IMG/VR virus record: IMGVR_UViG_3300031994_000034 | Direction: 5' to 3' (one strand) | DNA length: 64,000 nt | From: a virus | In this document: positions 4,799-53,767 of the stretch, one piece after another | Layout: every line of letters starts with the position of its first letter | Numbering within the stretch: position 1 is the first letter of the stretch | Program-made: the position numbers and the translations under genes | The notes under the pieces: model-generated | Database searches by the model: none | Seen by the model: the letters and a program-made list of their open reading frames with translations, nothing else | Told to the model about the DNA's origin: nothing

Positions 4799-5635
4799 AT
4801 GGCAAAAAAACAACGAACACACCAGCTACGTCACATCGTAGCCGTGTCAAACAACAAAGGCGGAGCCGGCAAGACCAGCACCGTCCTGAACCTCGCATCG
4901 GCCATCAGCCGGCGCATCGAAGGTTACAGAGTCCTCGTCATCGACTGTGACCCGCAGCGCAACCTCTCCTACTTCCTCGGTTGGGACGACCGACGCGAAC
5001 TGGATGGCTCCCCCACCCTCTACACCGCCCTGTGCAACGAACAGCAGGGGCTTCCAGTCTATCGTGCCGACAACGGCCTGTACTACACTCCGGCCTCCGT
5101 CAACCTGAACGGTATCGACGCCATTCTTTCCCTGCGTCCCAATCCCAGCAAAGCACTGAAGGAAATCCTTTCAAGACCCATCGACAACCGTACCGATGGT
5201 ACTGTGCTCAGCGATTCTGTCGCTGAGAGTTTCGACTTCATCTTCATCGACACCCAGCCCGCCATGTCGCGCATGACCTATAACGCCCTCTACGCTGCAG
5301 ACGGCTACATCATCCCCACAGAACTGGAAGAGGCCAGCGTCAAGGGTATGGCCAACATCGCCGTAGCCGCAGGTAAGGTGGGAGCCGACACGGGCAACCT
5401 CACCATCCACGGTATCCTTATTACCAAACTCGACGCCAAGCTGCGCTCCGCCAAACTCTATGAGCCGCAAATCCGCCAGTCGTTCCGCGAAACCTTCCAG
5501 ACGGCCATCCGCCGCTCCAAGGACATCATCGAGAGTCAAGCCCTCCGCGAGGACGTGTTCACCACCTACTCCGGCGGTCGTGCTGCAGAAGACTATACCG
5601 CCCTCGCCACCGAGTATCTGAGAAAGTTCGCTTAA
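4799..5635 (+). CDS. parA: ParA/Soj-family partition ATPase
   Basis: Deviant Walker A box VSNNKGGAGKTS, then DCDPQ and the downstream ParA-like layout. Confidence 0.9.
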   Translation: MAKKQRTHQLRHIVAVSNNKGGAGKTSTVLNLASAISRRIEGYRVLVIDCDPQRNLSYFLGWDDRRELDGSPTLYTALCNEQQGLPVYRADNGLYYTPASVNLNGIDAILSLRPNPSKALKEILSRPIDNRTDGTVLSDSVAESFDFIFIDTQPAMSRMTYNALYAADGYIIPTELEEASVKGMANIAVAAGKVGADTGNLTIHGILITKLDAKLRSAKLYEPQIRQSFRETFQTAIRRSKDIIESQALREDVFTTYSGGRAAEDYTALATEYLRKFA

Positions 5636-22819: not shown

Positions 22820-23770
22820 ATGGCAAACCCAAGAGTGTATGTTGGTACTTATGGCAAGTACAACCGTGGCTCGCTGGCCGGTGGTTGGCTGAGTCTGAAA
22901 GAATGCAAGGACTATCAGGACTTCCTGCGGAAATGTGGCAGACTGCATCGCGGGGAGCACGACCCTGAGTTTATGATACAGGACTGCGAGGACTTCCCAG
23001 ACGGGCTGAATTGCGGCGAGTGGCTATCGGAGCAGGATTTCAAGGATGTTATCGCCGCCTGCGAGGAGGAAGAGCGGCAGGAGTCTGTAGCCGACCGGTT
23101 GCGGGTCGCCCTGCGTGAACGTCTGAAGGCCGACGGCAAGGCTGTCCCTGCTGATGACGAGCAGACGCTGCTGGAGGAATACATGAAGGAGTACGAGAAG
23201 GTGTGGCCCGACGACAAGTCGATGCTGGACTATTGCCGCAAGGAGTTCTCGGGTGCCGTGCGCCTGCAGAACGGCGGCATCCTCTATTTCGAGAAGCCGA
23301 GCATCAAGACGGAGTTTTGCTTCGGCTATTCCACCTGCGGACAGGGCGCAGAGTATGACGAGGCGAACAATGCGGCGCGGTCGGCGAGGACGGAGGGCTA
23401 CTTCCTGCACGCCAACCTGGACGAGATGGACGAGCGCATCCGTGCGCTGGAACTGAACTGTTGCTATCCCGAAGGGGAGTGGAATGGCACCTACGACAAC
23501 CTAACGTGGTACATTCAGCGGAAGAGCTATTGCAGCCAAAAGGAGGAACTGAACTTGTTCGAGTTCCGCGCCTGGCGCGAATACGACGTGGAGAACGAGC
23601 CGTGGCGATACACGCCGGGCAGTTACGAGAAGATGTCGGACGCCGACCGCATGACTATCCTCGGCGGCATGAAGCGTGAGCGAGAGAAGTTCGAGAAGCG
23701 GCTGCGTGCCTATCTGAAACGCTACGGCACCACGAAGCTACGCACATGGACCTACTGGCTGGACGAATAG
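22820..23770 (+). CDS. ardA: protein with ArdA-like antirestriction N-terminal domain
   Basis: RVYVGTYGKYNRGSLAGGWLSL...EHDPEFMIQDCEDFP matches the ArdA N-domain pattern (xYVxxLxxYNxGxLxGxW ... E(E/D)xxIxDxExxP). Confidence 0.6.
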   Translation: MANPRVYVGTYGKYNRGSLAGGWLSLKECKDYQDFLRKCGRLHRGEHDPEFMIQDCEDFPDGLNCGEWLSEQDFKDVIAACEEEERQESVADRLRVALRERLKADGKAVPADDEQTLLEEYMKEYEKVWPDDKSMLDYCRKEFSGAVRLQNGGILYFEKPSIKTEFCFGYSTCGQGAEYDEANNAARSARTEGYFLHANLDEMDERIRALELNCCYPEGEWNGTYDNLTWYIQRKSYCSQKEELNLFEFRAWREYDVENEPWRYTPGSYEKMSDADRMTILGGMKREREKFEKRLRAYLKRYGTTKLRTWTYWLDE

Positions 23771-23883: not shown

Positions 23884-24933
23884 ATGGCAAGAACAACCGA
23901 TTATCTCACCTTCATGGTGGATGTGACCCCATACGAGCATGAGGGGAACAACTATAATGCACTGAACATCATCGTGGCCTATCGCAAGGGGCAGGGTTTC
24001 GTTATCTGCTGGCAACCCGTGCGGAAGACGGACATGGGTTATATCACTGGTCCTATGCCGAGCCGCGACCCACTCGTGGGCGGCAAGGGATTCGTGGCAA
24101 AGGAGGCATCGCGCAACAACGCGAAGATACTGGAGATGATGAAGGCGGCCCTATTGCTTGGAGCTGAGGGCATCAAGTTCTTCTTCGACCAGCGCAACTA
24201 CGACCGCCTGAAGGAGTTTATGTGCGACGTATGCAACTACGGCTATACGGCTGACGTCGAGAAGCAACTGCAAGAGACTATCAACAACAACTCAACCGAT
24301 AACAACTCAAAATCATCTACAACTATGGCAAAGAAGAACATGGCCCAGAATGAGAGTGCTAACGTGCAGAACGCACAAGTGAACAACCAGGCAGACGAGC
24401 AGCCCAAACAGGTGACGCAGAAGAAGAAAGCTATTGCCGAGCAGCAGCCTGCCAAATTCTCTGTTGTCCCCTATACCAACAAGCAGGGCGAGACGGGTTA
24501 CTTTCTCTTCGGCTTTGCCTCACAGGAGGAAGCAAAGGGCCTGGCCGACCGCATGGCCAAGAGCGTCCGCGAAGGCTTCCGCTATGAGGACCATACCCGC
24601 TATGACGTGGTAGGCTTCCCGCCCCGCTATGCTCAGATGGCACAGCAGATGTGCGATGCACTGAATGCTGGCGATGCAGCTGCCGTGGCGAAGATTGCAG
24701 CCAGCACCTTCGATGTCTATGCCGCTGCCGTGGCCGACGGCAAGGCTGAGAGCGACCGCAAGCGTGCCGAGCGCAAGGAGGCCGAGGCAAAGGCAAAGGC
24801 TAAGGAGGTAGCCAAGGTGAAGAAGTCCGCAGGTCTCTATTCCAAGGAGGACGTAGCCGCTATGATGCAGACACTATTGAATGGTGGCGACGTTCCGGAG
24901 GACATCAAGGCGTTGCTGGCCAAGGTGGCGTGA
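23884..24933 (+). CDS. hypothetical protein with Lys/Ala/Glu-rich C-terminal part
   Basis: 349-aa ORF, CTATGG start context. No family recognised. Confidence 0.6.
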   Translation: MARTTDYLTFMVDVTPYEHEGNNYNALNIIVAYRKGQGFVICWQPVRKTDMGYITGPMPSRDPLVGGKGFVAKEASRNNAKILEMMKAALLLGAEGIKFFFDQRNYDRLKEFMCDVCNYGYTADVEKQLQETINNNSTDNNSKSSTTMAKKNMAQNESANVQNAQVNNQADEQPKQVTQKKKAIAEQQPAKFSVVPYTNKQGETGYFLFGFASQEEAKGLADRMAKSVREGFRYEDHTRYDVVGFPPRYAQMAQQMCDALNAGDAAAVAKIAASTFDVYAAAVADGKAESDRKRAERKEAEAKAKAKEVAKVKKSAGLYSKEDVAAMMQTLLNGGDVPEDIKALLAKVA

Positions 24934-24983
24934 GTGACTTTTTCAATGCACAGTTCATAATGCATAATTCATAATTAAATCAG

Positions 24984-25044
24984 TCTCGCAGAAATCGCGG
25001 ATATACGCAGAAACATTTCCTCTATTTCCGCTATTTCTGCGGGA
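24984..25044 (+). repeat. 9-nt-repeat hairpin, CGCAGAAAn variant
   Basis: tctcgcagaaatcgcggatatacgcagaaa-ca-tttcctctatttccgctatttctgcggga. The same 9-mer recurs in frame inside the RT gene at about 26520-26550. Confidence 0.8.
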
Positions 25045-25061
25045 CATAAACGAAACGAACT

Positions 25062-25226
25062 ATGGCAAGCATGTATGTGACTATACGCATCGACTATGAT
25101 GCACCCATCGAGACGGACATGGAGACTATCGCAGGGATGGTGTGCGAACGGGCTAACGCTCACAATCACACCATCGAGGATGGCGTGACGATCGAGAATG
25201 TGGAACTATGTGGGATTAACGAATAA
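25062..25226 (+). CDS. hypothetical small acidic protein
   Basis: Hand-translated 54 aa: MASMYVTIRIDYDAPIETDMETIAGMVCERANAHNHTIEDG... CTATGG start context, 11 nt upstream of the RT start. Confidence 0.45.
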   Translation: MASMYVTIRIDYDAPIETDMETIAGMVCERANAHNHTIEDGVTIENVELCGINE

Positions 25227-25237
25227 AGCAAGAAACT

Positions 25238-26830
25238 ATGGACAAGATATTATCAATGTTTTTCGAGGCAGGGCGGTGGGAATACGCCATTGCCAAGGGT
25301 GTGGGTAAGGACGTTCCGAAGAACGTGTTGTACCAACTATGCAAGCCAGAAGTGCGGATGCAGATGTACGAGGCTATCCGCACGGGACAGTACGAGATTG
25401 CACCGCCACATACGGCACTTATCCCGAAGGATACGCCAGGCGAGTTCCGCACGGTGTATGTGAACGAGGCAGCTGACCGTGTGCTGCTATCCATTGCCAA
25501 CGACCTGCTGTTTGAGTTGATGCCAGACAGGGTGCATCCGCGTTGCAAGTCGTACTTGAAAGGTGTTGGTTGTGGGAGGATAGTGCAGGAAGTCAGTACG
25601 GCCATCCTTGCGGCAAAACCGCAAGGTACAGAGAAATTGGGCTGGAAGAGCGACCTGAGTAAGTATTTCGACTCGGTACCTATCCGATTCATAGATGCTG
25701 CCTTCGACATGGTAGAGGAACGGCACGGACATTCGGCCCTGATCGATGTACTGCGAAAGTATTACCATGCCGACCTCTATTTCACTCCCGATGGGGTGCT
25801 GGAAAGCAAGTACCAAAGTCTGAAGCAGGGTTGCTCGGTGGCATCGTGGCTGGCCGACGTCTTACTCTATCACATCGACGAGCGACTGACTAAGTTGAAC
25901 GGCTATTACGTCCGCTATTCGGACGATATGCTCTTTATCGGGCCGGATGCAGAGCAGGCTATGCAGGTCCTCACGGAGGAACTGGCAGCTATGGAAATGC
26001 GGCTCAACCCTAAGAAGGTGGAGTGGCTGGACGAGCGGCACTGGTTTAAGTTCCTGGGCTTCTCTATCCGTGGCAAGGACATCAGTCTGAGCAGTACGAG
26101 AATCAAGACGTTTCAGAGGGAGATTGAGAACAGGACAGTGAAAAGTGGAAAATCTAAGTTCACAATCACTTCGGCTCTCAACTCCGTGAACCGCTATCTG
26201 TATCGTGGCGACGGACAGGGGCATTCGTGGGCAACGCAAGTGCTGCCTATCGTGAACGTAAGACAGGACATCGCCACGCTGAACCTGTTCGTGATGGACT
26301 GTCTGCGGGCTGCCTGTACGGGCAAGACGAAAGTGGGCGGTCTGGGCTATGACAAGCAGGGTAGGGACGGCTGCATCGTCCGTGGCAGGGGCAGGAATGT
26401 GAGTGCCAACCGCAGGAAGACGGGCGACGACATCGGCGGCTATCTGTCGCTGAGCTGTATGCAGAACGCGATGCGGACGAGCAAGGCGGCGTATGACTCG
26501 CTGGTGCGCTCACTCAACTTCTCGCAGAAAACGCAGAAAGCGCAGAAATCTGATGCTACGAGCATCGAGGAACTGGAGGCGGCGTATGCGGTGTATAAGC
26601 ACTCCATTCCGAGCGAAAGGACGATGGGGCGTGTGCCTCGCTTCTATGCGCTGCCCGAAAGCGAGTTGAGCAATGACGATATGCTCTATGGCGTTCCCCG
26701 TGAACAGGCGGAGCGCGAATTGGAGAAGGTGCTGGCAGGGTTCACGATGCCTGAAGGGGCAGGGTGGTTCTGGCAGAGCGAGAACGACAAGGACTTGGTG
26801 GTGCTGCGCTCATGGTGCAGTGCCGCATAG
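25238..26830 (+). CDS. reverse transcriptase (unclassified prokaryotic RT)
   Basis: RT motifs in order: IPKDTPGEFRTVYV (1), ADRVLLSIANDLL (2), KSDLSKYFDSVP (3), LKQGCSVASWLADVLL (4), YVRYSDDMLFIG with YSDD at 25916-25927 (5), MRLNPKKV (6), FKFLGFSI (7). A 230-aa C-terminal extension has no recognisable domain. Confidence 0.9.
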   Translation: MDKILSMFFEAGRWEYAIAKGVGKDVPKNVLYQLCKPEVRMQMYEAIRTGQYEIAPPHTALIPKDTPGEFRTVYVNEAADRVLLSIANDLLFELMPDRVHPRCKSYLKGVGCGRIVQEVSTAILAAKPQGTEKLGWKSDLSKYFDSVPIRFIDAAFDMVEERHGHSALIDVLRKYYHADLYFTPDGVLESKYQSLKQGCSVASWLADVLLYHIDERLTKLNGYYVRYSDDMLFIGPDAEQAMQVLTEELAAMEMRLNPKKVEWLDERHWFKFLGFSIRGKDISLSSTRIKTFQREIENRTVKSGKSKFTITSALNSVNRYLYRGDGQGHSWATQVLPIVNVRQDIATLNLFVMDCLRAACTGKTKVGGLGYDKQGRDGCIVRGRGRNVSANRRKTGDDIGGYLSLSCMQNAMRTSKAAYDSLVRSLNFSQKTQKAQKSDATSIEELEAAYAVYKHSIPSERTMGRVPRFYALPESELSNDDMLYGVPREQAERELEKVLAGFTMPEGAGWFWQSENDKDLVVLRSWCSAA

Positions 26831-26879
26831 ACTATTCGCCACCGCACAGTGGCTATCCCTGCGTAGGGCGGCGCATCTT

Positions 26880-27255
26880 TAAGGTGCCGGCGTTTCAAAC
26901 ACGGGTTTCACTGGAGCCCATCTGGCAGATTTCCCAGATTGGCTCGGTTCAGCCCGTGCCACGCCGGCACTTATCATCGACGGAATAAAGACGATGTGCC
27001 AGGCCGCAAGGCGCAGGGAAGAGGGTAGCGCATACTGCCTATACAGACTATCAGAACGGCACAATTCAGCAATTCGAGCTATTAAGTCTTCTTTCACGTC
27101 GAACCCTTCGGGTCCGCAGGTACGGCGCTTCGCCGCTTCCGCTGGCTTCGCAGCCAGTACCTGCGGAACCGGGCGGGTCGCGTTCAGAAGACCAAAGCTC
27201 GAATCTTCATCGACACCATAAAGCGCTATGCCGCGCCGTGAGGATGGACTGAAAA
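26880..27255 (+). ncRNA. structured RNA module A (RT-adjacent)
   Basis: Nested helices GTGCCGGCG(26884)/CGCCGGCAC(26962), CACGGG/CCCGTG, GAGCC-ATCTGG/CCAGAT-GGCTC. Long-range TTCGAGCT..GTCTTC / GAAGAC..AGCTCGAA enclosing CCGCAGGTAC/GTACCTGCGG. No ORF. Confidence 0.6.
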
Positions 27256-27291
27256 ACAAAATTATCAACCATTTCAAAACTTAAAATCATT

Positions 27292-28380
27292 ATGAAGACT
27301 ATCAACAACGACGTGAACAACAACATGAGTAACAACAACGAGACAAAGGTGATGTGTCCTGTATGCGGCACGGAGTTCGCCATCGGCGAGCACGAACACA
27401 GAGTGAAGAACGCTGTCAGCATCGGCAAGGACAGTGGGCTGGGTGAGGTCTATCTGCCTGTGAGCAAGCGAGGCGACGCGCTGAAGGCTGCGGGCGTAGA
27501 TACGACGAAGTATTTCTCCATCAACCTGCCTACGGGTGGCAGTCAACTGATGAAGATGACGGACGGGGGTGTGCCTGTGGCAGTGACGGACGACGACCCT
27601 ATCATGGCGGCTATCCGCACACAGGGCACGGTACCTAACCGCTCGCTGTTCCGCCGCTGGGTGATGAGTCAGGTGTTCCACGGCTTGCAGTGTTCGGGCG
27701 GTTTCACGCAGTGGCTGAAGTGGCACGGCTATAAGTATCAGTGGGAGATGCTGGTGGAGGAACTGCGTGTGCAGGCCAAGCTCTACGGCAAGGACATGGA
27801 GAACTATGACGCCCGCAACCGTTGGTTTAACCGTGAACTGGCTGTGACGATGGCGAAGGACTATGTGGAGCAGCTGCGCAAGGATGCACACAAACGTCCG
27901 ACGCACAAGTGCAAGGGTGTGCCCTACATCCGCTTCTCGAACGAGAACTATTTCGTGAGCGACATCGAGAAGAAATTGATTACTCCCGTACATACACGTA
28001 TCGTCGCCATCGAGAGGGCAAAGAATCCTCAGCAACTCTACGATGCCGTGCGTAACTTCTGGTGGAAAATGCCAAGCGGCAGTCAGTATTACGACCAGTG
28101 CGCCGCATGGAAGGATGCCTATAAGGGCATGGGTGCCTATGCCACGATGCAGAACCTGCTGCGCTTCCACGGCTGCGGTTTTCCCAACGGCAACCAGTTC
28201 TATCATGCCCGTCTGTCCAACCTGCAAATGCTGGAGAATGCTGCTAAGGCATACGCCAATGGTGAGGGCTGGCGTCTGTTCGGTCTGATGAAGCAGATGC
28301 TGGAGATGAACGGCATCGACATCAAGGCAAAGATGCAGGAGTGGGCGCAGGCAAAGAAGGCTAAGAACCTGCGCCGATAA
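27292..28380 (+). CDS. hypothetical protein with N-terminal CxxC zinc-ribbon-like motif
   Basis: 362-aa ORF (MKTINNDVNNN..VMCPVCGTEFAIGEHEH...) bracketed by the RNA modules. No family recognised. Confidence 0.65.
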   Translation: MKTINNDVNNNMSNNNETKVMCPVCGTEFAIGEHEHRVKNAVSIGKDSGLGEVYLPVSKRGDALKAAGVDTTKYFSINLPTGGSQLMKMTDGGVPVAVTDDDPIMAAIRTQGTVPNRSLFRRWVMSQVFHGLQCSGGFTQWLKWHGYKYQWEMLVEELRVQAKLYGKDMENYDARNRWFNRELAVTMAKDYVEQLRKDAHKRPTHKCKGVPYIRFSNENYFVSDIEKKLITPVHTRIVAIERAKNPQQLYDAVRNFWWKMPSGSQYYDQCAAWKDAYKGMGAYATMQNLLRFHGCGFPNGNQFYHARLSNLQMLENAAKAYANGEGWRLFGLMKQMLEMNGIDIKAKMQEWAQAKKAKNLRR

Positions 28381-28434
28381 GCCATACACGAAAAGGCCGT
28401 GCGACCTATCCGCTGTGAGACGTGCAGACATTTT

Positions 28435-28800
28435 AGTCGATCAGGATTTCAACCTGTACGTTCATCTCGTGAGGTCCGACATCCATATTGGAATGCGGAC
28501 CTCCACGAGATGACCTTACAGGCCATCCTGATTGTCTCATCGACACGATACAGACACGCACCATGCACGGAGCACAGCGACTATACACCCCAGCACAGGG
28601 GACGGGCACTGCAAGACAGACGCAATTTAGTGAACAGTAGATAAGGGAAGGCGGCCTGCATCCGTCGTATCCCTATTGTTATACGACGGCTGGAACCGCC
28701 TTCGTATCTCACTGTTGACATCGAACGAGTAAAGACGATGTGCCGAGTCTGTGAGCAGTGACCTATCAGGGAGCGCACCCTATCATGCCGCAAGACATCC
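28435..28800 (+). ncRNA. structured RNA module B-I
   Basis: GATCAGGAT(28439)/ATCCTGAT(28525) enclosing CCTGTA/TACAGG and CATCTCGTGAGGTCCG/CGGACCTCCACGAGATG. Then the ATCGAC..ATACAG signature and the hairpin CCGTCGTAT/ATACGACGG. Confidence 0.55.
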
Positions 28801-28809
28801 ACGCTTTTC

Positions 28810-29105
28810 AAAGCGCCGGTTCACAGTTTGCCTGGGTTCCACTGGGATATTCCCAGTTCCCCAGGTAAGTTGCACCGGCACTTATCGAACCTATACAGCC
28901 ATGCGCCGAGGATGGTGAGCGACAACGGGAACGGCTGCGCATACAGCCTATGAGGTTTGCAGAGCGGAACTTTCAAACGACATCAGACTTAGATAAGCTC
29001 GCCTCAGTTAGGGCGGCCAGCCTACCCGCTGGCGGCCTTAACGAGGAGAGCTCCCTCTGATGCCCATATCAACCGAATAAAGCACTATGCCAGTCCGCGA
29101 GGCAG
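28810..29105 (+). ncRNA. structured RNA module B-II
   Basis: GCCGGT/ACCGGC, CCTGGG/CCCAGG and ACTGGG/CCCAGT replace the module A helices with compensatory changes. A 15-bp hairpin GTTAGGGCGGCCAGC/GCTGGCGGCCTTAAC has a + strand G-U pair. Confidence 0.6.
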
Positions 29106-29151
29106 ACGAAAAAAGAAGGTACAACTTAAAACAAAAATACGCAATAAAATT

Positions 29152-29496
29152 ATGAAAATTAAATCATCTATCGGAAAGAATGTGAACGAGGCGGTGAAAA
29201 ACTGCCGTGAGGTATTGGCAAACGAAACCGTGAACCTGCTGAAGCAGATGCGTGTAGAGCCAGGGCAGGAGGTGCTGTTCAAGAGGGCGCTGTTCCTCTA
29301 TCAGCACAAGGGAATGACCACTGAGACCATTGTCTGCGACCGCATCGCCTACTTCGGACGTGAGGGCAGCGAACCCTATTACATCGTCAGCATGGGCAAG
29401 GACGAGTACGTATCGCCAAAGAGCAATCTTTTTCTCTCGACAGACAGTCTGCAGGGTATCTACGAAGAGGTACGCCGCGTGGTGAGGGAAGAATAA
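29152..29496 (+). CDS. hypothetical protein
   Basis: 114-aa ORF. Confidence 0.55.
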   Translation: MKIKSSIGKNVNEAVKNCREVLANETVNLLKQMRVEPGQEVLFKRALFLYQHKGMTTETIVCDRIAYFGREGSEPYYIVSMGKDEYVSPKSNLFLSTDSLQGIYEEVRRVVREE

Positions 29497-29555
29497 TCTG
29501 TGGTATCTGTGCTATCTGTGTGAGAATGTCGCACGGAAATCACAGAAATCACGAA
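29497..29555 (+). repeat. 9-nt-repeat hairpin
   Basis: tctgtggtatctgtgctatctgtgtga-gaatgt-cgcacggaaatcacagaaatcacgaa, starting immediately after a stop codon. Confidence 0.8.
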
Positions 29556-29587
29556 AAAAGAAGGAACAATTAAAAACAAAACGAACT

Positions 29588-30073
29588 ATGATGGAAGATT
29601 TATTCACACGGAAACAGATGGAGAACGCGGTGATGCTGGCCGCTGACCTCTATCAGGGAATGTATTACAGCCCTGCAACCGACGGCGGTGCGCTGGAAGT
29701 GGCAGGTGCTATCATTGACGAAGCCGTGAAGATGGAGGCGTGGATGACGGAGAAATATGGTAAGGACGACGACCAGTATCTCGACCACCTGGATGAGTAC
29801 GAGACTCTATTGAAAAAGAAGTATGGCCTGCAGAAGAACGAGGTGACGGTTATCTTCGGGGAGAATGCGGCACAGGCCTATATGAACGACGGCGTGGACG
29901 GGCTGTGCGAGTTTATCGACGAAGGTCAGCTGGTGCGAATGACGTTCGACACGTTGGCCGAGCGGAGGGCGTATATCAGTGGCATAGACGATGCCGACGG
30001 CTGGTTGGGCAGCGCTGTGCTGGAAGACAGTGATGCCGAGAGCGAGAGAGTGAAGGCTTTATTGGACAATTAA
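29588..30073 (+). CDS. hypothetical acidic protein
   Basis: 161-aa ORF, CTATG start context. Confidence 0.6.
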   Translation: MMEDLFTRKQMENAVMLAADLYQGMYYSPATDGGALEVAGAIIDEAVKMEAWMTEKYGKDDDQYLDHLDEYETLLKKKYGLQKNEVTVIFGENAAQAYMNDGVDGLCEFIDEGQLVRMTFDTLAERRAYISGIDDADGWLGSAVLEDSDAESERVKALLDN

Positions 30074-30087
30074 AACAAGAAACGACT

Positions 30088-30447
30088 ATGACTGTATTGG
30101 AACAAAGATTCATGGAGCGGGTGCCAAACCTGCTGGGCGACATCGCAGAGTCGCCGGAAACTATCGCCAAGGCCAAGCAGCCGAAACAGAAAGTATGGGT
30201 GTTAACCTATGTCGGGCTGAGTGACAGCGACTATGAAGCCAACGGCTATAGTGAGTGCCATGTGTGCGGCACGTTGGAAGCAGCCAAGGAGAAAATGCGT
30301 CAGCTGCGCGACGCGGAGATTGAGAACTGCAAGGTCGAAGGGCGCGACTATGAGATTCTGGAAGACGAGACAACGGAACTGCGCATGTCGTGGTGCTGCC
30401 ACGGCGAGCAGGTGCGACTGGAAATCCACGAAGAGGAAGTGAAATAA
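30088..30447 (+). CDS. hypothetical protein
   Basis: 119-aa ORF, CTATG start context. Confidence 0.6.
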   Translation: MTVLEQRFMERVPNLLGDIAESPETIAKAKQPKQKVWVLTYVGLSDSDYEANGYSECHVCGTLEAAKEKMRQLRDAEIENCKVEGRDYEILEDETTELRMSWCCHGEQVRLEIHEEEVK

Positions 30448-30507
30448 TCTGTGCTATCTGTGCTATCTGTGTGAGAAAATAACCACGGATGGCACGGATG
30501 TCACGGA
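30448..30507 (+). repeat. 9-nt-repeat hairpin
   Basis: tctgtgctatctgtgctatctgtgtga-gaaaataa-ccacggatggcacggatgtcacgga. G-U pairing works only on the + strand. Confidence 0.85.
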
Positions 30508-35576: not shown

Positions 35577-37301
35577 ATGAACTTATTTACGAATAACCCC
35601 GATTTCTATCCTACGCCCAAGGAGGTTATCGGGCAGATGATGATGGGCGAAGAAGTGACTGGCAAAATCATTCTGGAACCGAGTGCCGGCAGCGGAAACA
35701 TCGTTGACTGGCTGAAGGAGAATGGCGCAGCGGAGGTGATTGCCTGCGAGAACGACCCGCATTGCAGGAAGCTATTGGCTGACAAGTGTCGGTTGGTGGC
35801 AGACGACTTCCTGACGGTGACGAGCGAGCAGGTGAGTCACGTGGATATGATTGTGATGAACCCGCCCTTCTCGAAGGGCGTCGAGCACATCCTTCACGCT
35901 TTCGAGATTGCGCCTCCGGGATGTACGGTGATTGCGCTTTGCAACGCTGACAGTGTGAGTGAACATCACAGCTACAGCCGCAACCAAATCCTGTACGAGA
36001 ACATCCAGCTCTATGGCTACACGGAGTGTCTGGGCAAGGTGTTTGAGACCGCCGAGCGCAAGACGAGCGTGGTGGTGTCGCTGGTGAAGCTCTATAAGGA
36101 GGGCACGGGCGAAGAGGAATGGCAAGACTATATTTTCAGCCAGCAGGACGAGGACGCACTGAACATGAACGAGACAGAGGGACTGGTGCAGTACAATGTG
36201 GTGCGCGAAATGGTGAACCGCTACATGAGTGCCGTGAAGATGTTCGACGAGGTGATGGAGATGACACAGCGCATCAACGAGACGGCACGTGCTACGGATG
36301 GAAAGTATGATGCACCACCTATTGAGTTTCGTGCCGTAGAGTCTCGCGATGGTCGTGCCACTACCGTCACTCGTGAGGAGTACAAGAAGCAGCTGAAGAA
36401 ATACTATTGGCGCACTATCTTCCGGATGCTGAAGATGGGGAAGTACGAGACACAATCGCTGCGTGAGCAGATGAACCGCTTTGTGGAGAAACAGGTGAAC
36501 GTGCCTTTCACGATGGGTAACATCTACAGGGTGCTCGACATGATTGTGCAGACGCACGGCCAGCGTATGCACAAGGCACTGGTGGAAGCCTTCGAGAATA
36601 TCTGTTCTTTCAGTGCTGAGAACTCCACGGCTGGCGAGAAGTGGAAGACGAATGCGAACTACATGGTTAACCGCAAGTTCATCATCCCCTATATGTGCGA
36701 CGGCTACGACTGGGAATATTCTGGGGAAGCCTGGAGTATGGCCCGCAAGAGGGTAGGGCGCGAGTATGTGGAAGTCAGCGGTTCCAGTGTAGAGGAGATG
36801 TACGATGTCTGCAAGGCGCTGTGCTACATGACTGGGCGCGACTACAACGAGATTCCTTCACTGCCTGGTGGGTATGGTGGCCGGCGTGTCGCATGGAACA
36901 CTTGGTTTATCTGGGGCTTCTTTCGCTGCAAGGCGTTCAAGAAGGGCACTATGCACTTCGAGTTCCTGGACGAGGACGTGTGGTATAAGTTCAATGCCGA
37001 AGTTGCCAAGACAAAGGGCTGGACACTGCCCAAGAAGAGCGACGGTTGGCAGCAGTCTCCGTCGAAACTCATTCCCCGCATCGACAAGGGCGACCTATTC
37101 CGCTGCAAGAAGGATGTGAAATACAGTGATGGAACAATGGCGTACCGCAAGGATATGGTGTACCGCTCCGAACGGGAACATGGTTATTCCTTGGGTTTCA
37201 TTACCAACGAGAGCGGAAACGCAAACCACGCATGGCCTATCTATCAGGACAAAGGCAAAGGTGTGGACGACTGGCGCGACTGGTTCGAGAAAGTAGCATG
37301 A
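35577..37301 (+). CDS. N6-adenine DNA methyltransferase with large C-terminal domain
   Basis: Motif I ILEPSAGSGNIVDWL and motif IV MNPPFS. 574 aa. Confidence 0.8.
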   Translation: MNLFTNNPDFYPTPKEVIGQMMMGEEVTGKIILEPSAGSGNIVDWLKENGAAEVIACENDPHCRKLLADKCRLVADDFLTVTSEQVSHVDMIVMNPPFSKGVEHILHAFEIAPPGCTVIALCNADSVSEHHSYSRNQILYENIQLYGYTECLGKVFETAERKTSVVVSLVKLYKEGTGEEEWQDYIFSQQDEDALNMNETEGLVQYNVVREMVNRYMSAVKMFDEVMEMTQRINETARATDGKYDAPPIEFRAVESRDGRATTVTREEYKKQLKKYYWRTIFRMLKMGKYETQSLREQMNRFVEKQVNVPFTMGNIYRVLDMIVQTHGQRMHKALVEAFENICSFSAENSTAGEKWKTNANYMVNRKFIIPYMCDGYDWEYSGEAWSMARKRVGREYVEVSGSSVEEMYDVCKALCYMTGRDYNEIPSLPGGYGGRRVAWNTWFIWGFFRCKAFKKGTMHFEFLDEDVWYKFNAEVAKTKGWTLPKKSDGWQQSPSKLIPRIDKGDLFRCKKDVKYSDGTMAYRKDMVYRSEREHGYSLGFITNESGNANHAWPIYQDKGKGVDDWRDWFEKVA

Positions 37302-51967: not shown

Positions 51968-53767
51968 ATGGAACAAATAACCCTACTTTACATCGACCTC
52001 TTCTGTGGCGCGGGCGGCACCAGCAGCGGCGTGGAGTATGCCCGCGTGGACGGCAGAAAGTGCGCCAAGGTCATTGCCTGTGTCAACCACGACAAGAATG
52101 CTATCCTCTCGCACCAGGCCAATCACCCGCACACGCTCCACTTCACCGAGGACATCCGCACGCTGGAACTGTCGCCGATGGTGACACACCTGCGGAAGAT
52201 GAAGGCGAGATACCCAAAGGCTCGTGTGGTACTATGGGCCTCACTGGAGTGTACGAACTTCTCAAAGGCCAAGGGTGGTCAGCCCCGCGATGCCGACAGC
52301 CGCACACTGGCAGATCACCTGTTCCGCTACATTGAGGCACTCGACGTTGACTACATCCAGATAGAGAACGTGGAGGAGTTTATGTGCTGGGGAGCGCTCG
52401 ATGAGAACGGTAAACCCGTGAGCAAGGACCAGGGCAGCGACTACCTGCGGTGGGTGCGCAAGGTGCAGGAATATGGCTACGACTTCGACTGGCGCATCCT
52501 GAATGCTGCCGACTTCGGAGCATACACCTCGCGCAAACGCTACTTCGGGCAGTTTGCCCGCCGTGGGCTGCCCATTGTCTTCCCCGAACAGACCTACGCG
52601 AAGAATGGCGACGAGGGAGGTCTCTTCAAAATGTACCACAAGTGGCGTGCCGTCCGCGACGTGCTCGACCTCGACGACGACGGCGAGAGCATCTTCACCC
52701 GCAAGAAGCCACTCTGCGAGAAGACGCTGGAACGCATCTACGCCGGCCTGGTGAAATTTGTGGCAGGAGGAAAGAAACAGTGCGAGGCGTGGATTCTGAA
52801 ATACAACTCCATGAACCAGCAGAACCACCACAACGCACCCTCCCTCGATGAGCCGTGCCCCACGGTGGCGTGCCAGAACCGCCTCGGACTGGTGAAGTGT
52901 CAGTTCCTCTCGAAGCAGTTTAGCGGCGACCCTGACAGCAAGAACATCGACATCGAGCAGCCTGCCGGCACCGTGACCACCATCGACCATCATGCACTGG
53001 TGTCATCAAGGTTCCTTACGGAGTATTTTGGTGGTGCTGACCACAACCATAGCATCGAGGAACCTGCGACCACTGTGACGACCAAGGAACGTCACGCCTT
53101 TGTGACGGCATACTACGGGAACGGCTACAACTCGTCGATTGACAGTCCTGCACCCACCGTGACCACGAAGGACAGGATTTCTCTCGTGAGCACGAAGTTC
53201 ATCGCCAACGAATACAGCGGCGGCGGTCAGCTCTCCAGCATTGAACAGCCGAACCCCGCCGTTCTCACTACGCCCAAGCAGAAAATTGTTACCTGCAAGC
53301 CGTGGTTGATGAGCACCGACTTCAATAATGTCGGAAGTTCTGTTGATGGGCCGGCACCAGTTATAACAGCATGTCACAAATATCATTACCTGATGAATCC
53401 CTATTCATTCAAGAGCGACGGCGGCAGCATCGAGAAACCTTGCTTTACGCTGATAGCGAGGATGGATAAGATGCCGCCCTACCTCATTACCACCAAGGAG
53501 GGCGAGGTGGGCATCGCCATCTACGAGAGCGACAGCCTCTGGACGCGAAAGGTGAAGGAGTTTATGGCTGCTTATGGCATCATCGACATTTGTATGCGTA
53601 TGCTGAACATCGGCGAACTGAAACGCATCATGGGCTTCCCCACCGACTACGTTCTCGTAGGTACCCAAGCCGAGCAAAAGAAATACATCGGCAACGCCGT
53701 GGAGGTGAACATGAGCCGCGTGCTCTGCGAGGCACTGGCCCGGAAACTTGAAAGTATTAACAAATAA
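51968..53767 (+). CDS. DNA cytosine-5 methyltransferase with seven tandem TRD-like repeats
   Basis: Motif I DLFCGAGGTSSG, motif IV-like SLECTNFS, motif VI ENV, motif VIII SRKRYFG, motif IX LNIGELKRIMGFP, motif X GNAVEV. Between VIII and IX there are seven (I/V/L)(D/E)xPxxx(V/I/L) units. Confidence 0.85.
   Translation: MEQITLLYIDLFCGAGGTSSGVEYARVDGRKCAKVIACVNHDKNAILSHQANHPHTLHFTEDIRTLELSPMVTHLRKMKARYPKARVVLWASLECTNFSKAKGGQPRDADSRTLADHLFRYIEALDVDYIQIENVEEFMCWGALDENGKPVSKDQGSDYLRWVRKVQEYGYDFDWRILNAADFGAYTSRKRYFGQFARRGLPIVFPEQTYAKNGDEGGLFKMYHKWRAVRDVLDLDDDGESIFTRKKPLCEKTLERIYAGLVKFVAGGKKQCEAWILKYNSMNQQNHHNAPSLDEPCPTVACQNRLGLVKCQFLSKQFSGDPDSKNIDIEQPAGTVTTIDHHALVSSRFLTEYFGGADHNHSIEEPATTVTTKERHAFVTAYYGNGYNSSIDSPAPTVTTKDRISLVSTKFIANEYSGGGQLSSIEQPNPAVLTTPKQKIVTCKPWLMSTDFNNVGSSVDGPAPVITACHKYHYLMNPYSFKSDGGSIEKPCFTLIARMDKMPPYLITTKEGEVGIAIYESDSLWTRKVKEFMAAYGIIDICMRMLNIGELKRIMGFPTDYVLVGTQAEQKKYIGNAVEVNMSRVLCEALARKLESINK

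Follow-up and report, generated by a model that had tools for sequence, protein, structure and literature searches.

Two non-coding blocks beside a UG27 reverse transcriptase gene very probably form an array of six tandem structured RNA units

The DNA analyzed here is a stretch of 64,000 nucleotides (nt) from the IMG/VR virus record IMGVR_UViG_3300031994_000034, referred to below as the window. It contains the gene for a reverse transcriptase (RT) of the UG27 group and two non-coding blocks (26831-27291 and 28381-29151), all within a run of co-directional + strand genes. The open reading frame (ORF) at 25238-26830 matched the PADLOC profile RT_UG27 over positions 2-420 of 420 (690.9 bits, E 1.5e-208) and also matched Pfam RVT_1, and its catalytic YSDD motif is intact (YVRYSDDMLF in the translation). 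Residues 427-528 matched RTas346 of PADLOC (E 3.1e-22), and the C-terminal 104 amino acids share 48% identity with the free-standing sORF (small accessory protein, cluster 346) of a related locus, L010; the sORF domain is an in-frame fusion, encoded by 26516-26830. The gene between the blocks encodes the large accessory protein (cluster 337, bORF), which is 45% identical to the bORF of L010 and gave no sequence match in Pfam, NCBIfam or the Protein Data Bank (PDB). Solved structures compared with the RT gave nothing nearer than weak RT-domain similarity. The RT belongs to the UG27 group, and all three UG27 protein components are encoded here.

UG27 RTs were previously found in gut phages of Bacteroidetes and Firmicutes, accompanied by clusters 337 and 346 and without enrichment in defence islands, and a presumed non-coding RNA (ncRNA) bearing three long stem-loops beside the RT was predicted by means of CMfinder and R-scape (Mestre et al., 2022; 10.1101/2021.12.02.470933, PMC9226505). 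A preprint of 2026-09-24 described UG27 loci with variable arrays of sequence-diverse units (Li et al., 2026; bioRxiv 10.64898/2026.09.22.753630). The published unit has length modes of 149 and 167 nt (or, lacking the pseudoknot, about 135 nt) and is composed of a main hairpin with a motif-bearing asymmetric internal loop, an extra basal hairpin and a pseudoknot. Five UG27 systems produced RT-dependent single-stranded DNAs (ssDNAs) of 50-100 nt in E. coli; these mapped to the central hairpins, with synthesis of the complementary DNA (cDNA) starting at the AUC of AUCNNNNNNNUANAG and ending after UUYA. Removing either accessory ORF eliminated the cDNA, and all three proteins are required. The cDNAs showed no complementarity to phage or host genomes, and their biological role was given as unknown (Li et al., 2026).

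Exact copies of the motif ATC-N7-TANAG were located at six places in the two blocks, all on the + strand (Table 1). Over the whole window and both strands the motif is not enriched (nine found, 5.5 expected); the six one-strand matches fall in about 1.2 kb of non-coding DNA, for which about 0.05 would be expected by our own scaling of the background, a density about 100 times that of the background. Each copy belongs to one of six units arranged in tandem on the RT strand, in which UUYA and AUCNNNNNNNUANAG flank a central hairpin; the bORF gene divides the array into two units and four. As laid out by an anchored parser, a unit consists, from 5' to 3', of a small hairpin (loop of one nucleotide plus five), the stem P1a, a 3-nt purine loop, the stem P1b, UUYA, the central hairpin, AUC-N7-UANAG, a linker of 3-4 nt, a 5-nt element, P1b', RAG and P1a'. 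Every unit thereby has an asymmetric internal loop that bears UUYA in its 5' strand and AUC-N7-UANAG in its 3' strand, UUYA standing 0-6 nt ahead of each central stem in the window and linker lengths being tight across units. The central hairpins differ in sequence from unit to unit and span 65-133 nt in the window (60-133 nt among all parsed units). In all six units of the window the 5-nt element after UANAG is complementary to the loop of the small hairpin, with which it forms a 5-bp pseudoknot. Both regions fold much better than dinucleotide shuffles, with z = -8.25 in the first (26836-27249) and -12.1 in the second (28400-29110).

Table 1. Features of the UG27 locus and of the remaining window. 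Element coordinates are from alignment A5 and central-hairpin spans from the anchored parser; bit scores and E-values of units are from covariance model R2 (both described in the text). Templates and product lengths are predictions.
Feature	Coordinates	Strand	Length	Match	Small hairpin (loop)	P1a	P1b	UUYA	Central hairpin	AUC-N7-UANAG	Pseudoknot, loop/3' strand (3' strand position)	Predicted cDNA template (product)
UG27 RT (residues 1-426) fused to small accessory protein, cluster 346, sORF (residues ~427-530)	25238-26830	+		PADLOC, Pfam RVT_1, YSDD								
ncRNA unit 1	26838-27016	+	179 nt	67.6 bits, E 2.3e-16	26838-26853 (26844-26848)	26859-26864/27011-27016	26868-26872/27003-27007	26878-26881	26882-26972	26976-26990	GCACA/TGTGC (26995-26999)	26878-26978 (~101 nt)
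ncRNA unit 2	27024-27248	+	225 nt, unusually long	59.0 bits, E 4.3e-14	27024-27039 (27030-27034)	27047-27052/27243-27248	27056-27060/27235-27239	27065-27068	27072-27204 (133 nt)	27209-27223	GCATA/TATGC (27227-27231)	27065-27211 (~147 nt)
UG27 large accessory protein, cluster 337, bORF	27292-28380	+		PADLOC RTas337, E 2.2e-112								
ncRNA unit 3	28393-28578	+	186 nt	44.9 bits, E 2.4e-10; outside model seed	weak, 3 bp, AGG/CCT (28399-28403)	28412-28417/28573-28578	28421-28425/28565-28569	28432-28435 (TTTA)	28438-28534	28539-28553	GTGCG/CGCAC (28557-28561)	28432-28541 (~110 nt)
ncRNA unit 4	28587-28760	+	174 nt	56.8 bits	28587-28602 (28593-28597)	28607-28612/28755-28760	28616-28620/28748-28752	28626-28629	28633-28716	28720-28734	GCACA/TGTGC (28739-28743)	28626-28722 (~97 nt)
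ncRNA unit 5	28767-28924	+	158 nt	42.3 bits, E 1.2e-9; outside model seed	28767-28782 (28773-28777)	28786-28791/28919-28924 (one C.A mismatch)	28796-28800/28910-28914	28807-28810 (TTCA)	28815-28879	28884-28898	GCGCA/TGCGC (28902-28906)	28807-28886 (~80 nt)
ncRNA unit 6	28933-29107	+	175 nt	70.6 bits, E 3.7e-17	28933-28948 (28939-28943)	28955-28960/29102-29107	28964-28968/29094-29098	28972-28975	28981-29062	29068-29082	GCATA/TATGC (29086-29090)	28972-29070 (~99 nt)
ParA-like partition protein	4799-5635											
ArdA anti-restriction	22820-23770											
DUF4942/methyltransferase-like protein	35577-37301											
C5 cytosine methyltransferase	51968-53767											

An earlier note, made from the letters of this DNA, had listed six copies of a longer signature that has this motif as its core and ends in ATGYGCC. 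The number of copies and the core held; the ATGYGCC part is imperfect in three of them (ATGCCGC, ATGCACG and ATGCCAG) and, described there as single-strand-like, in fact makes up the pseudoknot's 3' strand. P1a and P1b are separated in all units by a conserved, purine-rich 3x3 internal loop (in unit 1, 26865-26867/27008-27010; columns 45-47 and 366-368 of alignment A5). Among the 77 units of that alignment the loop has A (64/77), G (55), R in its 5' strand and R, R, G (52) in its 3' strand; it may contain tandem purine-purine pairs or be bound by a protein.

Relatives of the RT were collected from 15 IMG/VR loci (61-83% identity; contigs of 4-145 kb, most of 50-145 kb), from a Bacteroidaceae rumen metagenome-assembled genome and from a Muribaculaceae isolate; individual loci are given below by our numbers (L001 and so on). 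Nearly all of them carry runs of the motif on the RT strand, spaced by 160-185 nt. Direct alignment of the six units with MAFFT aligned only the 3' motif and was useless for structure. A covariance model of a trimmed layout of 82 columns (R1) did not recover genuine units, with or without filters, its inserts being too long, and was replaced by model R2, with 167 positions and 23 nested pairs, built from 37 near-full-length units. R2 was used to search 202 kb (the window and 12 loci) on both strands at E <=0.01. It returned exactly six matches in the window and none elsewhere on either of its strands, and 77 units over the 202 kb, every one on the + (RT) strand. Units 3 and 5 of the window and all units of L004, L016 and L017 are matches beyond the seed. 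One unit of L016 (8103-8215) is just 113 nt long, yet scored 63 bits.

The motifs are nearly invariant in this set. The U and the C of AUC are present in 77/77 units each, and the U, A, A and G of UANAG in 77, 76, 77 and 76; for UUYA, scored in 75 units, the counts are 75, 75, 69 (C or T) and 74. This conservation agrees with the published UG27 consensus.

The pairing was then examined in two alignments. In A3 (44 units in a trimmed, fixed layout) 95.9% of the cells are paired, as opposed to 54.7% after shuffling, and double changes occur in 25/25 pairs; since A3 was fitted to the structure, a less biased test was sought. In A5, the alignment of the 77 units, 94.7% of the cells are paired (52.8% when shuffled, 25-41% with partners slid), and the covariation score is 0.885, compared with 0.198 in shuffles (0/500 as high) and 0.06-0.11 with slid partners. 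All 28 tested pairs have changed on both sides, which bears out the earlier proposal that an RNA fold beside the RT is conserved by compensatory changes. The pseudoknot provides a clean test, because R2 treats its columns as unpaired: it is 99.7% paired in A5 and covaries at 5/5 positions, with CG in 36 and UA in 34 units at one position and AU in 49 and GC in 23 at another. Likewise, loop and tail of the same unit match perfectly over 5 bp in 45 of 55 units, whereas permuted loops give 12.3 +/- 2.8 such units. The RNA architecture of the units and its conservation are thus a matter of observation.

The earlier note had parsed the same DNA as three RNA modules (A, B-I and B-II), each a single molecule made of a first domain and of a second, different one that a long-range helix closes. 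Every helix listed there is present at its given place and in the minimum-free-energy folds, among them GTGCCGGCG (26884-26892) with CGCCGGCAC (26963-26971), GCCGGT/ACCGGC in 28815-28879 and GATCAGGAT/ATCCTGAT in 28438-28534, and the units do stand in adjacent pairs, two before the accessory gene and four after it. Against composite molecules, the single-unit model R2 fits all six stretches end to end (positions 1-167), and each stretch has a small hairpin, basal stem, UUYA, motif and pseudoknot of its own. Moreover, no predicted helix joins neighbouring units, and related loci have odd and variable unit numbers (1+6, 5+5 and 2+5, for example). The three-module arrangement is accordingly very unlikely, and it gives way to six equivalent members of one family. 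What had been called first domains correspond to units 1, 3 and 5, and the second domains to units 2 and 6; unit 4 had been left undescribed, and the note had overlooked the small hairpin at the 5' end, the basal stem in two parts and the pseudoknot.

The strand on which the units act was addressed separately. Folding energy was discarded as a means of assigning it, the - strand being equally or more stable: it has the lower folding energy in 5/6 units of the window and folds as well or better in 42/66 central hairpins. The claim that G-T pairs fall on the + strand only likewise failed; the helices on which it was made are all pure Watson-Crick, and in A5 the totals are 61 G.U to 32 A.C, a modest + strand bias of about 2:1. 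The bias is seen in the scaffold helices P1a and P1b (39 G.U, 15 A.C). The central hairpins contain 31 internal G.U among about 1030 stacked pairs and, on the + strand, four A.C 1x1 mismatches. Two other counts were set aside: a first, symmetric count of G.U and A.C, which showed no + strand excess, probably from helices extended at their ends, and an apparent A.C excess in the outer central stem (13 to 4), for which A5 gave 10 G.U and 6 A.C. The RT strand was assigned because all 77 R2 matches lie on it, because the motifs are asymmetric and because the published cDNA mapping is strand-specific. The call of an RNA in the gene direction was therefore right, although the reason first offered for it was wrong.

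The same data bear on the proposal that the hairpins act at the level of DNA, as cruciforms or single-stranded sites (attC-like recombination sites, origins or packaging signals), the RT being incidental. The stability of the - strand and the almost purely Watson-Crick pairing of the central hairpins would fit such a role. Near-perfect pairing is, however, also expected when the RNA template and the cDNA copied from it both have to fold, and the near absence of wobble pairs fits a template of this kind. The asymmetric motifs and the pseudoknot occur on the RT strand only, in 77/77 matches; G.U outnumbers A.C in the basal stems and in the central hairpins; the arrays accompany the UG27 RT, sORF and bORF in every related locus examined; and RT-dependent cDNA from the RNA has been published. 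A DNA-level function is for these reasons highly improbable.

Another type of RT-RNA system, such as a retron msr/msd, the template RNA of DRT2 or DRT9, a group II intron remnant or the template repeat of a diversity-generating retroelement (DGR), is less probable still. Group II intron, retron and DRT RTs are weakly similar to the RT domain, and the expected product, a short ssDNA hairpin, is retron-like. The profiles decide the matter, with 691 bits for UG27 compared with 62 for Drt9, 48 for Drt2 and about 32 for retron models; profiles of group II RT/maturase, retrons, DRT2, DRT3, DRT4 and DRT9 all gave 25-75 bits, far under their thresholds. The group II RT/maturase model TIGR04416 gave 75.4 bits (NCBIfam cut-off 300), the retron model St85 of NCBIfam 32.4 bits (cut-off 235) and the PADLOC model Ec107-like 32.1. 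In the RNA, six tandem units, each with its own basal stem, are unlike a retron, no Rfam retron or msr model matched, and several different tandem templates are unlike either a retron or DRT2. Rfam 15 gave nothing at gathering level in the whole window, and a search of 24900-29300 at E up to 10 gave only noise (microRNA and small nucleolar RNA models); this RNA is thus outside every curated family of Rfam 15. A DGR is opposed by the lack of any direct repeat of >35 nt in 24500-30500 and by the units of the array being just 52-67% alike.

Functional parallels with these systems can nonetheless be drawn. As with retron msr/msd, an RT with accessory proteins makes a short, abundant ssDNA hairpin by copying part of a structured ncRNA next to it; retrons, however, belong to a different RT clade and have one template per locus, a1/a2 repeats and priming from a branching G, whereas the present locus has several tandem templates and no a1/a2 repeats. 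DRT2 (UG2) and DRT9 (UG28) are also class 2 UG/Abi RTs templated by a neighbouring structured ncRNA, and a pseudoknot is likewise present in the DRT2 RNA. Concatemers are the product of DRT2, homopolymers that of DRT9. UG27 differs from both in its discrete hairpins of 50-100 nt, its many different templates and its being phage-encoded; long, concatemeric cDNA is the reported product of other class 2 UG RTs (Li et al., 2026).

Ordinary cis-regulatory hairpins for the flanking genes (terminators, attenuators or mRNA-stabilizing stem-loops), which the intergenic position in a co-directional gene block might suggest, can be dismissed, as motifs and a covarying pseudoknot are common to six complex units of 158-225 nt, no U-tract follows any unit, and the same units recur in arrays of 4-10 in related loci.

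The two blocks are, very probably, the ncRNA array of a phage-borne UG27 RT system, six tandem units transcribed in the direction of the RT gene. By analogy with the five UG27 systems tested in E. coli, the RT-sORF fusion and bORF would bind each unit, and the central hairpin of each would be reverse-transcribed from the AUC to a stop after UUYA, as homology predicts. Six ssDNA hairpins would result (Table 1). The predicted cDNAs fold as DNA hairpins (z of -4.0 to -8.7). When compared with the rest of the window they gave only chance complementarity of 10-13 nt, in agreement with the negative result of the preprint.

Several points weigh against this interpretation or limit it. The - strand is as stable as the + strand, so that thermodynamics alone leaves the strand unfixed. 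The R2 seeds were parsed to fit the structure, and cell counts overstate the number of independent events, because many units are orthologues. Unit 2 is longer than any published mode (~135, 149 and 167 nt) and units 1, 3, 4 and 6 (174-186 nt) are somewhat longer than 167 nt; the boundaries drawn here may differ from the published ones. The small hairpin of unit 3 has just 3 bp, and P1a of unit 5 has a mismatch. Transcription, cDNA synthesis and the cDNA boundaries at this locus are what we infer by homology with other UG27 RTs. PHROGs found no virion genes among the 20 window ORFs tested, but did find a ParA-like protein, so that the label 'phage' is taken from the relatives. A counter-defence role, finally, is suggested by the neighbouring genes only.

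The locus closely resembles the arrays of Li et al. (2026) in its RT group, both accessory proteins, tandem and sequence-diverse units of about 150-180 nt, UUYA and AUCNNNNNNNUANAG in an asymmetric loop, the basal hairpin, the pseudoknot, the presence of units in a second intergenic region as well and, judged by its relatives, a probable home in Bacteroidota phages. It departs from that description in the fusion of sORF to the RT C-terminus and in its longer units (most of 174-186 nt, one of 225 nt with a 133-nt central hairpin), and the cDNA is here predicted. The structured stretch that separates the UG27 RT gene from that of the large accessory protein also corresponds to the ncRNA reported in gut phages by Mestre et al. 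(2022), who described one ncRNA with three stem-loops and not repeated units with motifs and a pseudoknot. The fold, motifs, pseudoknot, array organization and product of the UG27 RNA are already known, and this locus adds nothing fundamental to them because they have been published. UG27 systems, which may be reprogrammable, are a newly characterized phage route to defined ssDNA hairpins in cells. The locus confirms the architecture independently and by a different route (reading by eye, a covariance model made by hand and counts of pairs), supplies a clade with a natural fusion of RT and small accessory protein, and points to the cultured phage BS-TP1 as a genetically testable carrier.

The fusion is shared by part of the relatives. 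The RT match extends into the sORF domain in L001-L006, L012, L014 and L016, and ends at about residue 430 in the other loci; the domain is lacking from the RT of L008-L011, L013, L015, L017 and phage BS-TP1. Only for L008 and L010 was the sORF confirmed as a gene of its own, the order there being RT, array, sORF, bORF. The words 'fused' and 'fusion' are absent from the main text of the UG27 preprint (10.64898/2026.09.22.753630). In this clade the natural fusion of RT and sORF gives independent evidence for an action of both proteins as one complex.

Unit types persist between loci. Counterparts of unit 4 at the same position are 79-82% identical in L002 and L003, and those of unit 5 are 69-76% identical in L002, L003, L005, L014 and L016. 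Units 4, 5 and 6 keep their order and their type-specific central-hairpin blocks across several related loci at 69-82% identity (window 28587-29107; L002 9175-9723; L003 8873-9401; L014 8679-9021; L016 8589-9132), whereas paralogues within one array are at background (52-67% identity). This persistence suggests unit-specific roles of the cDNAs. Adjacent units have identical 5-nt pseudoknot codes in 4/39 pairs, compared with 8.4 +/- 2.2 when permuted (P ~0.03; units 1-6 and the arrays in L002-L016). Differing codes in neighbours may prevent inter-unit mispairing and insulate folding; the evidence is weak because the loci are related and not independent.

A host-takeover or counter-defence role of the cDNA hairpins is compatible with the neighbourhood of ArdA and methyltransferase genes and, judged from that context only, may be the likeliest one. 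We offer tentatively, and as rather doubtful, the idea that each cDNA hairpin is a sequence-specific effector, for example a decoy or inhibitor of a host defence or factor, the array being a modular counter-defence arsenal co-expressed with ArdA and the methyltransferases. The persistent unit types, the differing codes of neighbours and the RT-sORF fusion fit such an arsenal and do not prove it.

With the genes listed at the foot of Table 1, this part of the element resembles an early region, or one for anti-restriction or plasmid-like maintenance. UG27 relatives were found on IMG/VR viral contigs, in phage BS-TP1 and in genomes of Bacteroidaceae and Muribaculaceae; GenBank phages gave no megablast match to the locus, and plasmids no tblastn match to the RT. 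The cultured Bacteroides phage BS-TP1 (L018; PQ571274.1, record 79351-81962) encodes a UG27 RT that is 68% identical and annotated as 'tail protein', followed by an unannotated gap of 1.35 kb in which model R2 found at least four units.

In some relatives (L006 4616-4823; L014 4676-4816) one more unit is located upstream of the RT. The corresponding part of the window was searched and contains none; an inverted repeat and a small ORF are found there. The inverted repeat (24983-25045) has 23-nt arms, 87% complementary, and a 17-nt loop, is not a UG27 unit, and could be a terminator or an operator; the ORF, of 54 codons, lies between it and the RT (25063-25226).

Downstream of the array, two intergenic repeats precede small ORFs. 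One (29492-29526 and 30443-30477) is 35 nt long, 97% identical and carries tandem CTGTGCTAT; the other (29106-29136 and 29551-29581) is 31 nt long, 90% identical and A-rich. Both may be shared promoter or leader elements.

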